Source: a virus
Taxonomy: Duplodnaviria; Heunggongvirae; Uroviricota; Caudoviricetes
Reading direction: 5' to 3' (one strand)
IMG/VR virus record: IMGVR_UViG_2529292871_000019
DNA length: 4,114 bases
The notes under the pieces were generated by a model. The model saw only the letters and a program-made list of their open reading frames with translations. It did not search any database and had not been told where the DNA came from. Below, one piece after another: positions 1,678 through 2,349 of the stretch (positions are counted from its first letter, which is position 1; each line of letters opens with the position of its first letter). Both the position numbers and the translations under genes were made by a program.

Positions 1678-1749
1678 CTGTTTTCTCTGCTGGCGCAGCA
1701 GGTGCCAGTTGTTCAGGCTGACGGATGGATTGTAAACCAGAACGACCAG

Positions 1750-1774
1750 AAAAAACAAAACCCGCCGAAGCGGG
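1750..1774 (-). terminator. Rho-independent terminator at the 3' end of the hok mRNA
   Basis: Minus strand reads CCCGC-UUCG-GCGGG followed by UUUUGUUUUUU (plus-strand stem 1761-1765/1770-1774, A-run 1750-1760). Confidence 0.8.
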
Positions 1775-1779
1775 TTAAG

Positions 1780-1795
1780 TGCGGGTGCGTTGAGG
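1780..1795 (-). promoter_or_regulatory. fbi-like 3' element of the hok mRNA, complementary to the mRNA 5' end
   Basis: mRNA 3' segment CCUCAACGCACCCGCA can pair with the 5' segment UGCGGGUGCUUGAGG (2158-2172) over 15 bp with one bulge. Confidence 0.65.
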
Positions 1796-1844
1796 ATGCC
1801 TGACACATCAGCGGTGGCGAGGGATTTCTCCCCCGCCTGGTCTC

Positions 1845-2000
1845 TTACTCCTCAGGTTCGTAAGCTGTGAAGACAGCGACCTCCGTCTGGCCGGTTCGGA
1901 TTCGTACCTCGCAGAGGTCTTTCCTCGTTACCAGTGCCGTCACTATGACGGTTAAACAGATGACGATCAGGGCGATTAACATCGCCTTTTGCTGCTTCAT
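1845..2000 (-). CDS. hokD: Hok/Gef-family type I toxin, 51 aa
   Basis: MKQQKAMLIALIVICLTVIVTALVTRKDLCEVRIRTGQTEVAVFTAYEPEE; ATG at 2000 with AGGAGA 7 nt upstream; single transmembrane segment and the conserved Hok C-terminal region. The hokD assignment is from recalled sequence and the adjacent rem-like gene, not from a search. Confidence 0.9.
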   Translation of the reverse strand: MKQQKAMLIALIVICLTVIVTALVTRKDLCEVRIRTGQTEVAVFTAYEPEE

Positions 2001-2057
2001 AACCTGCTTCTCCTTGCCTTTCGGCGCGTAAGAGGCTAACCTACGTTTGTGAAGCAT
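1845..2057 (-). CDS. mok: mok-like upstream reading frame, in frame with hok (70 codons)
   Basis: ATG at 2057 with GAGG 9 nt upstream, 19 codons before the hok ATG and in the same frame; occupies the position of mok in hok/sok loci. Confidence 0.45.
   Translation of the reverse strand: MLHKRRLASYAPKGKEKQVMKQQKAMLIALIVICLTVIVTALVTRKDLCEVRIRTGQTEVAVFTAYEPEE
2014..2042 (+). promoter_or_regulatory. putative sok promoter on the antisense strand inside the mok-hok overlap
   Basis: TTGCCT (2014-2019), 17-bp spacer, TAACCT (2037-2042); same placement as the sok promoter in the plasmid R1 locus as I recall it. Confidence 0.45.
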
Positions 2058-2122
2058 AGATTGGGCCTCAGATTAATGTTAAGCGTCTTGCAGGACGCGT
2101 AATGTTAACTGGGGCTTTTCTC
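2050..2122 (+). ncRNA. sok: Sok-like antisense RNA (antitoxin), ends approximate
   Basis: Antisense to the hok leader and mok start; long imperfect hairpin TTAATGTTAAGCGTC-TTGCAG-GACGCGTAATGTTAA (2073-2108) followed by GGGGCUUUUCUCU (U-run 2116-2123). Confidence 0.5.
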
Positions 2123-2157
2123 TGTCTGCCTTACGGTGGCATGCCCGAGGCAGACAG

Positions 2158-2172
2158 CCTCAAGCACCCGCA
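2158..2172 (-). promoter_or_regulatory. tac-like 5' end of the hok mRNA
   Basis: UGCGGGUGCUUGAGG at the predicted mRNA 5' end, complementary to the fbi-like element at 1780-1795; followed by a leader hairpin with 9-bp stem (2122-2130/2150-2158). Confidence 0.6.
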
Positions 2173-2175
2173 GCA

Positions 2176-2205
2176 ATTCTACTTAACTCTCGCTTTACCG
2201 CAAAC
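2176..2205 (-). promoter_or_regulatory. putative hok promoter
   Basis: Minus-strand -10 TAGAAT (2176-2181) and -35 TTGCGG (2198-2203, 16-bp spacer); predicted start near 2168-2172 gives an mRNA of about 420 nt ending at the terminator. Confidence 0.5.
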
Positions 2206-2214
2206 CGTTTTGCC

Positions 2215-2236
2215 CGATATGGGAATTCCCATATCG
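2215..2236. repeat. 22-bp perfect palindrome CGATATGGGAATTCCCATATCG
   Basis: Exact reverse-complement symmetry read directly from the sequence; lies between the micro-ORF stop (2245) and the hok -35 element. Confidence 0.9.
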
Positions 2237-2244
2237 TAATGAAT

Positions 2245-2349
2245 TCAGTTCCCTAGTCGATCCATCAAAAACACAACCAGGCAGTAAACGCCCACAACAG
2301 CAACAACAGCCAGCGCACCTTCCATTGCCAGTGATATATCATCCGACAT
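2245..2349 (-). CDS. candidate 34-aa hydrophobic membrane micro-protein
   Basis: ATG at 2349 preceded by AAGGAGGG; MSDDISLAMEGALAVVAVVGVYCLVVFLMDRLGN, one predicted transmembrane helix; stop TGA 2245-2247. Below the 60-aa cutoff of the ORF track. Confidence 0.35.
   Translation of the reverse strand: MSDDISLAMEGALAVVAVVGVYCLVVFLMDRLGN

Follow-up and report, generated by a model that had tools for sequence, protein, structure and literature searches.

The 4,114-nt stretch of viral DNA analyzed here, hereafter the window, carries a complete hok/mok/sok type I toxin-antitoxin locus (Table 1). This locus is very probably an intact member of the hokD/hokW subgroup that resides in the nin/Q region of a lambdoid prophage and acts through a mechanism like that of plasmid R1. 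A first-pass annotation of the sequence had described a complete module; each part that it listed is present, with small corrections given below, and Pfam, Rfam and PHROG matches, covariation among homologues and predicted folds all agree with that description. The module itself is already known and routinely annotated: annotations of hokW, mokW and sokW in 933W and VT2-Sakai date back decades, the family is covered by Pfam, Rfam and PHROG models, and the NCBI pipeline labels the gene hokD. The locus thus carries little weight as a discovery, and a close relative (about 93% identical) has been shown to work and to aid phage release (PMC8621323). The only mildly new point is a hypervariable segment in the region recognized by the Sok antisense RNA. 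The locus is also useful as a worked example, since it gives a base-by-base view of what K-12 hokD lost on becoming the third gene of relBEF.

Table 1 Positions of the hok/mok/sok elements in the window
Feature	Position	Strand	Description
hok/mok/sok locus	2203-1750	minus (sok on plus)	complete type I toxin-antitoxin set
hok/mok promoter	2176-2203	minus	-35 TTGCGG (2203-2198), 16-nt spacer, -10 TAGAAT (2181-2176); read from sequence
Full-length hok mRNA	2169-1752	minus	predicted, about 418 nt
tac	2158-2169	minus	5'-terminal GGGUGCUUGAGG; predicted partner is fbi (full-length) or ucb (3'-trimmed)
5' hairpin	2122-2157	minus	directly follows tac; in MFE and centroid folds and in the Rfam RF01794 consensus
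ucb / anti-SD box	2109-2117	minus	AAGCCCCAG; predicted partner is the mok SD region (full-length) or tac (truncated)
mok Shine-Dalgarno	2066-2069	minus	GAGG, 8 nt 5' of the mok AUG
Hypervariable segment	2042-2065	minus	surrounds the mok AUG; complementary to the Sok 5' tail
mok start	2057-2055	minus	ATG, in frame with hok
mok ORF	1845-2057	minus	70 aa, in frame with hok, shared stop codon (ORF list)
dcb	2032-2036	minus	GCCUC; pairs with the mok SD region in the 3'-trimmed fold only
hok toxin ORF	1845-2000	minus	51 aa, stop included in coordinates; SD AAGGAG at 2015-2010
fbi	1783-1795	minus	CCUCAACGCACCC; tac partner; retained in K-12 hokD and hokW
Intrinsic terminator of hok mRNA	1750-1776	minus	stem 1776-1759, then T-run (terminator scan)
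Sok promoter	2014-2042	plus	-35 TTGCCT, 17-nt spacer, -10 TAACCT
Sok antisense RNA	2049-2119	plus	predicted, about 71 nt; 5' tail single-stranded, then a long imperfect hairpin and UUUU

The locus, its neighbours and its relatives

The Hok toxin gene named in the first-pass annotation is borne out by family models. Its peptide scores 81.6 bits against Pfam HOK_GEF (PF01848, cutoff 22) and 114.7 bits against PHROG 251, 'MokW-like host killing', and is 100% identical to K-12 HokD. NCBIfam Hok HMMs gave matches below cutoff only (48.5 versus 73) and were therefore left out of the membership evidence. The proposed mok-like start upstream of hok also holds, as the ATG at 2057 opens a 70-aa frame in phase with hok and is conserved across homologues; among 87 aligned sequences its A and T are invariant and its G is present in at least 90%. 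An in-frame mok/hok layout is common to an R1-type IncFII locus and to annotated mokW/hokW. The mok Shine-Dalgarno GAGG is invariant in 87/87 sequences and is the mok Shine-Dalgarno in R1 as well (PMC9841398). Two plus-strand ORFs that overlap the module (1867-2031 and 2102-2239) matched no family and were set aside.

Rfam RF01794 ('sok') matches window positions 2169-1995 across its entire length (model 1-157 of 157). The score is 114.9 bits, where the gathering score is 59 (E = 1.4e-26). Because the model runs from GGGUGCUUGAG to the hok AUG and aligns to the hok-mRNA strand, the match identifies the locus and its leader and not the antisense Sok RNA. Sub-threshold Rfam matches (isrK with 27 bits versus 50, rsmX, snoRNAs) were set aside as noise or terminator similarity.

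All sizeable ORFs in the window lie on the minus strand. Pfam assigns RusA (fragmentary), DUF968/YdfU, the Hok/Gef peptide and DUF551, with the module located between DUF551 and DUF968/rusA. A near-identical stretch is found in E. coli O55:H7 USDA5905 (99.5% identity over window 1700-2260), where it is annotated hokD. That copy lies in a lambdoid prophage and is flanked by replication genes on one side and by rusA, a DUF1133 gene and a lysis cassette on the other. The resulting gene order, with hok between the replication genes and rusA/Q on a single strand, places the module in the nin/Q region of a lambdoid prophage. The flanking genes had been described as rem-like and YdfU-like, and the module as one without relBE. 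The first of these descriptions fails: tblastn with K-12 Rem as query returned no homologue in the window, and the downstream 92-aa ORF (1402-1677) corresponds to PHROG 1212. The YdfU/DUF968 homologue is real, with 78% amino acid identity to K-12 YdfU, but is frameshifted here. Neither RelE nor RelB homologues were found in the window, as expected from that description.

Comparison with K-12 hokD (relF, in the relBEF operon of the Qin prophage) locates the point at which the two loci part. The 51-aa peptides are identical, and homology begins only at AGGAGAAGCAGG, near window position 2014 at the hok Shine-Dalgarno; from there the DNA is about 98% identical as far as the terminator, ORF and fbi included. 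In contrast to the window, which has all of these elements, K-12 hokD lacks the hok promoter, tac, 5' hairpin, ucb, sok with its promoter, mok start and dcb. The upstream part is replaced in K-12 by the 3' end of relE, which abuts the hok gene 14 nt upstream of its ATG. These observations agree with the first-pass annotation, which had hokD behind relBE in Qin with its regulatory region lost. Both loci have a YdfU/DUF968 gene downstream of hok, whereas rem lies downstream in K-12 only. The window copy, with its full leader, does not have the K-12-type arrangement of relB-relE upstream and no leader or sok.

The window copy was also taken to be the unrearranged form of the K-12 locus. It is indeed the intact counterpart of K-12 hokD; the rarity that this implied is wrong, as in E. 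coli prophages the complete form is the usual one. Among viral contigs encoding an identical Hok, 71/80 carry the full leader and 2/80 carry the relE junction. At least 80% of window 1700-2260 is held by 2801 of 5426 complete E. coli genomes.

The closest studied relative is hokW-sokW/mokW of the Stx2 phages Sp5, VT2-Sakai and 933W, which is about 93% identical in nucleotide sequence to the window from the -35 to fbi. The promoter hexamers and their spacing, tac, ucb, dcb, fbi and the Sok -35 and -10 are all identical between the two loci. MokW is 87% identical to the window Mok and HokW shares 47/51 residues with the window Hok, where four C-terminal residues differ (TAYEPEE versus VDYESEK). 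Further differences comprise seven positions in the 24-nt target of the Sok tail and the 3' flank past fbi, such that the terminator is different. In VT2-Sakai, hokW lies away from the nin region, unlike the window copy. A 2021 study established hokW-sokW as a working type I toxin-antitoxin pair in which HokW arrests growth and sokW gives protection when its own promoter drives it, an effect that depends in part on RNase III and Hfq (PMC8621323). Under mitomycin C, the sokW of Sp5 is lost and HokW is induced in a RecA-dependent manner, and deletion of hokW-sokW halves phage release (PMC8621323).

The R1-type hok/sok locus (parB; R1 and IncF plasmids) is more distant. It shares with the window the order of elements, the in-frame mok and the predicted tac/fbi closure, together with the conserved boxes GCUUGAGGCU, AGCCCC, GAGGC, AGCCUCUUAC and GCAAGGAGAAG; the ucb AGCCCC is invariant between the two. 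In contrast, R1-type Mok/Hok is only 45% identical to that of the window over the aligned region, the leader has other hairpin lengths, and the locus is carried by plasmids as opposed to a prophage. The IncFII locus used for this comparison is one that we take to be R1-type, its Hok being 100% identical to the R1 peptide. Only R1 has been shown to mediate post-segregational killing.

The condition of the neighbouring genes bears on whether the module is still active. One frameshift is found in rusA and two in the DUF968/ydfU gene, which raises the possibility of a decaying prophage and of a module that selection no longer maintains. That is to say, the locus might be an intact-looking but functionally silent relic, carried passively and no longer killing, and the chromosomal precedents point in the same direction: the K-12 loci are stated to be inactive (PMC1635323), and hokA, hokB and hokC gave no post-segregational killing in the work of Pedersen and Gerdes, as summarized in bioRxiv 10.1101/2025.08.07.668861. 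We nonetheless consider a silent relic unlikely. The ORF and every regulatory element are undamaged and agree with the consensus of the family, and the hok ORF differs by only 0.006 per site among 66 loci, which argues for purifying selection. The hokW-sokW pair, about 93% identical, is active (PMC8621323), and the frameshifts could be assembly errors.

Transcripts, predicted folds and their conservation

Both the hok and the Sok promoter have weak hexamers and were therefore missed by a consensus sigma-70 scan; the hok -35 has 3/6 consensus matches. Promoters were instead assigned by position, conservation and the published sokW mutant. One minus-strand site that the scan did return inside the leader (2082-2053) occurs at the chance rate (1 found, 0.8 expected) and was rejected. 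The +1 of the hok mRNA is placed at about G2169, a position suggested by where the Rfam model and family conservation both start. At the other end of the transcript, the terminator named in the first-pass annotation is seen as an intrinsic one on the minus strand (1776-1759 plus T-run).

The antisense promoter and Sok-like hairpin with U-run described earlier are likewise recovered. The promoter match at 2014-2042 is unique, with 0 expected by chance, and the plus strand at 2050-2123 folds into a long imperfect hairpin followed by UUUUCUCU (-30.7 kcal/mol, z = -5.4). A 'pro-less' sokW mutant made with primers YO-421/422 lost antitoxin activity (PMC8621323), and our own alignment indicates that these primers would change exactly the TAACCT -10 on the sok strand. 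The ends predicted for Sok were transferred from the misc_RNA sokW (71 nt) of VT2-Sakai by gap-free alignment; the first-pass annotation had placed it at 2050-2122, and homology to SokW gives 2049-2119. Probe YO-592, published for sokW northern blots, aligns to 2049-2078 with 4 mismatches. At the level of sequence, the candidate RNA thus has its own promoter, a terminator hairpin and complementarity to the mok initiation region.

Folding of the full-length hok transcript, whose length had been put at roughly 420 nt, was used to examine closure of the mRNA ends. The 418-nt fold (-174.9 kcal/mol, z = -6.6) shows tac/fbi pairing in both the MFE and the centroid, consisting of 12 bp plus one bulged C between nt 1-12 and 375-387. 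This complementary motif occurs at only these two sites and in 0 of 200 shuffles. The first-pass annotation had given tac/fbi as 15 bp; the pairing itself stands, and since a gapless extension to about 18 bp is possible through one mismatch, that length is roughly right and not exact. In the same fold, ucb pairs with the mok Shine-Dalgarno region (nt 99-105), which sequesters the mok Shine-Dalgarno.

Deletion in silico of the last 46 nt (nt 373-418, fbi included) changes the predicted fold. In the 3'-trimmed RNA, tac pairs with AAGCCCC in ucb (nt 53-59), and the mok Shine-Dalgarno region (101-105) pairs with GCCUC in dcb (134-138). The dcb sequence GCCTCTTAC is conserved in 87/87 sequences and in the R1 type. 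A rearrangement from tac/fbi to tac/ucb plus SD/dcb has been described for R1 (PMC9841398), and the switch predicted here matches it. Folding of the R1-type mRNA likewise predicts an overall architecture like that of the window transcript.

Conservation of the fold was assessed with 80 viral and 53 genomic loci containing Hok relatives, from which 87 distinct full-length mRNAs (69-98% identity; Escherichia, Shigella, Kluyvera, Erwinia and others) were aligned. When the window MFE is projected on these homologues, 91.3% of cells are paired versus 36-42% in controls with pairing partners slid by 1-3 columns, a fraction inflated by the source of the structure, which is itself a member of the alignment. 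This bias weighs less on the compensatory counts: 37 pairs have changes on both sides versus 17-24 in the slid controls, and the covariation score is 0.095 versus about 0.03. Compensatory pairs are present in helix 2, the 5' hairpin (3), in helix 3, the Sok/target hairpin (6), and in helix 20, the terminator (8). For tac/fbi, 98.3% of cells are paired across the 87 sequences, and four Kluyvera-type sequences carry the single compensatory change, from G-C to A-U; because this helix is almost invariant, its support comes mainly from conservation and thermodynamics and its covariation is thin.

These results also bear on whether a small hydrophobic ORF and some hairpins could have come together by chance, with no toxin-antitoxin function. 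The weakness of both promoters in the consensus scan is the only point that speaks for such a mix. Pfam, Rfam and PHROG scores far above their thresholds, the covariation, the alignment with hokW-sokW and the conservation of the ~450-nt unit in thousands of genomes and phages refute it, and we give it practically no chance. A 22-bp palindrome at 2215-2236 was considered as a further part of the module and rejected, being found in only 10/136 loci.

Proposed mechanism and role in the prophage

The mechanism that we propose for the intact module is modelled on the plasmid R1 paradigm. A weak constitutive promoter would produce a stable 418-nt mRNA in which tac/fbi pairing, together with ucb over the mok Shine-Dalgarno, leaves the full-length molecule neither translated nor bound by Sok. 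Slow trimming at the 3' end would then remove fbi, allowing tac to re-pair with ucb and the mok Shine-Dalgarno region with dcb. In this trimmed form mok would become translatable, and hok with it through translational coupling, unless Sok intervenes. The short-lived, cis-encoded Sok is expected to pair over the mok Shine-Dalgarno and AUG and thereby to commit the mRNA to decay by RNase III. Once the supply of Sok stops, Hok would be made, and this 51-aa inner-membrane peptide would depolarize the membrane and kill or lyse the cell. A killer function of the window copy is plausible because the ~93%-identical hokW-sokW works (PMC8621323), and the HokD peptide is reported to be toxic when overexpressed (bioRxiv 10.1101/2025.08.07.668861).

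For a copy carried by a prophage, killing would most likely be triggered by loss of the element or by induction. Upon induction, antiterminated read-through could both oppose transcription of Sok and supply hok-containing RNA, an idea that we infer from the co-orientation of hok with the early-right operon. Such read-through would be in keeping with the behaviour of Sp5, in which sokW disappears and HokW appears in a RecA-dependent manner. Counting against the favoured account of an intact module with an R1-like mechanism are both promoters falling below the threshold of the consensus scan, the frameshifts in neighbouring rusA and DUF968, and the chromosomal loci without killing.

The same module may have as its main role the stabilization of the prophage or defence by abortive infection, as opposed to assisting lysis or release at induction. 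We consider a maintenance or defence role of this kind quite possible. The VT2-Sakai annotation reads 'prophage maintenance', and R1 hok/sok reduces T4 plating, as cited in PMC8621323. Hok is found in thousands of prophages and phages, and hok genes are about four-fold enriched in prophages; against a defensive role, hok is not enriched beside defence systems (bioRxiv 10.1101/2025.08.07.668861). A prophage copy has been the subject of a single direct experiment, which showed a two-fold gain in phage release and covered neither maintenance nor defence (PMC8621323). The sequence does not discriminate between these roles.

Variation in the Sok-recognition segment

Inspection of 66 loci with identical Hok reveals that the variation of the mRNA is concentrated where the Sok tail would bind. 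Pairwise differences in the segment 2042-2065 amount to 0.29 per site, compared with 0.006 for the hok ORF. With a mean entropy of 0.71 and 17 haplotypes, it is the most diverse 24-nt stretch of the mRNA. Since Sok is cis-encoded, any change in this segment preserves self-complementarity and lowers cross-pairing with other copies. Drift alone could produce this pattern of variability, because self-complementarity is always kept; selection for orthogonality among co-resident copies is possible.

Tentatively, and with more doubt than confidence, the segment may be a specificity determinant with many alleles, such that co-resident copies are mutually orthogonal and each Sok protects only against its own hok mRNA. 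If selected for orthogonality, the segment would explain the coexistence of many hok/sok copies in prophage-rich genomes such as O157:H7. Among pairs of copies from the same genome, 9/10 differ in the Sok-tail allele, in a sample that lacks power given that random pairs share an allele in only 5.5% of cases. E. coli genomes with any match contain the locus in a median of 2 places, and in up to 10.

Variability of the Sok target and strand of the Rfam match

Inspection of the 66 loci that encode an identical Hok peptide reveals that the mRNA segment targeted by the Sok 5' tail (window 2042-2065) is more variable than any other 24-nt stretch of the module. Differences per site reach 0.29 in this segment versus 0.006 in the hok ORF, and the segment occurs as 17 haplotypes across these loci. 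The segment also contains the mok ATG, which is conserved. Such variability could represent diversification of Sok/hok specificity, or simply a cis-antisense pair that drifts freely.

RF01794, which Rfam calls 'sok', covers tac through the hok AUG (window 1995-2169) on the strand of the hok mRNA; the strand that encodes Sok is not the one to which the family aligns. As a guide to strand, the name 'sok' misleads.

Features within and around the hok/mok/sok module (window coordinates)
Feature	Position	Strand	Remarks
rusA	1-341	minus	two reading frames, split near 165-180
DUF968/ydfU	354-1397	minus	two compensating frameshifts, ~515-700
Tyr47 codon UAC, followed by G1859	1860-1862	minus	UACG in predicted hairpin loop
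Sok 5' tail target	2042-2065	minus (mRNA nt 105-128); plus strand is the Sok 5' tail	variable segment
Perfect 22-bp palindrome CGATATGGGAATTCCCATATCG	2215-2236		directly upstream of hok promoter -35
Small hydrophobic ORF, 34 aa	2248-2349	minus	directly upstream of module
Small hydrophobic ORF, 50 aa	2391-2543	minus	directly upstream of module

The Tyr47 codon and 3' UTR of the hok mRNA

The predicted loop that holds the UACG of the Tyr47 codon is 9 nt long (CUUACGAAC), and CUUACGAA is near-invariant in the 87 full-length homologues aligned. TadA-mediated A-to-I editing of hok mRNAs, with recoding of Tyr to Cys, is reported, with mention of hokD, in a preprint (bioRxiv 10.1101/2025.08.07.668861). 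The Tyr47 UACG is the type of site reported as edited by TadA, and we infer that this exact codon would be the one edited.

Further downstream, the hairpin and terminator of the hok 3' UTR are covered by a minus-strand match that falls below the Rfam threshold (window 1755-1836; 27.2 bits versus a cutoff of 50, E = 0.005). The matching family is isrK, an sRNA associated with prophages in Salmonella, and the match probably reflects terminator-like similarity only.

Module boundaries and flanking genes

The validated hokW-sokW module of the Stx2 phage VT2-Sakai (2553-2827) occupies a phage location unlike that of the window module, adjoining a YgiW/YdeI-like gene and outside the nin region. Divergence between the two starts directly after fbi, such that hokW-sokW lacks the terminator present in the window. 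It appears that the module, of ~420 nt, moves as a cassette and that the cassette ends on its 3' side directly after fbi. On the opposite side, the palindrome is found at an equal offset in 10 of the 136 fetched loci and could be a protein-binding site or a module boundary. In the O55:H7 prophage, which is near-identical, the annotation gives the 34-aa ORF as a hypothetical protein (WP_001278454.1); neither this ORF nor the 50-aa one returned a family match.

Downstream of the module, about 25 out-of-frame codons, stop codons among them, lie between the DUF968 frameshifts. The rusA and DUF968 frameshifts point to either a decaying prophage or assembly indel errors.

Copies on plasmids and small contigs

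The plasmid matches include hundreds of plasmids of ~90-100 kb, for the most part non-mobilizable E. coli plasmids, with a copy that is annotated as hokD and about 88% identical; on a single 438-kb plasmid the copy is 99.6% identical. The hokD-bearing plasmids may be phage-plasmids. Hok is also found at 96-100% identity on a 275-nt contig of Acinetobacter idrijaensis and a 431-nt contig of Xanthomonas pisi; both belong to assemblies of non-enterobacterial species, where they most likely represent E. coli or phage contamination.
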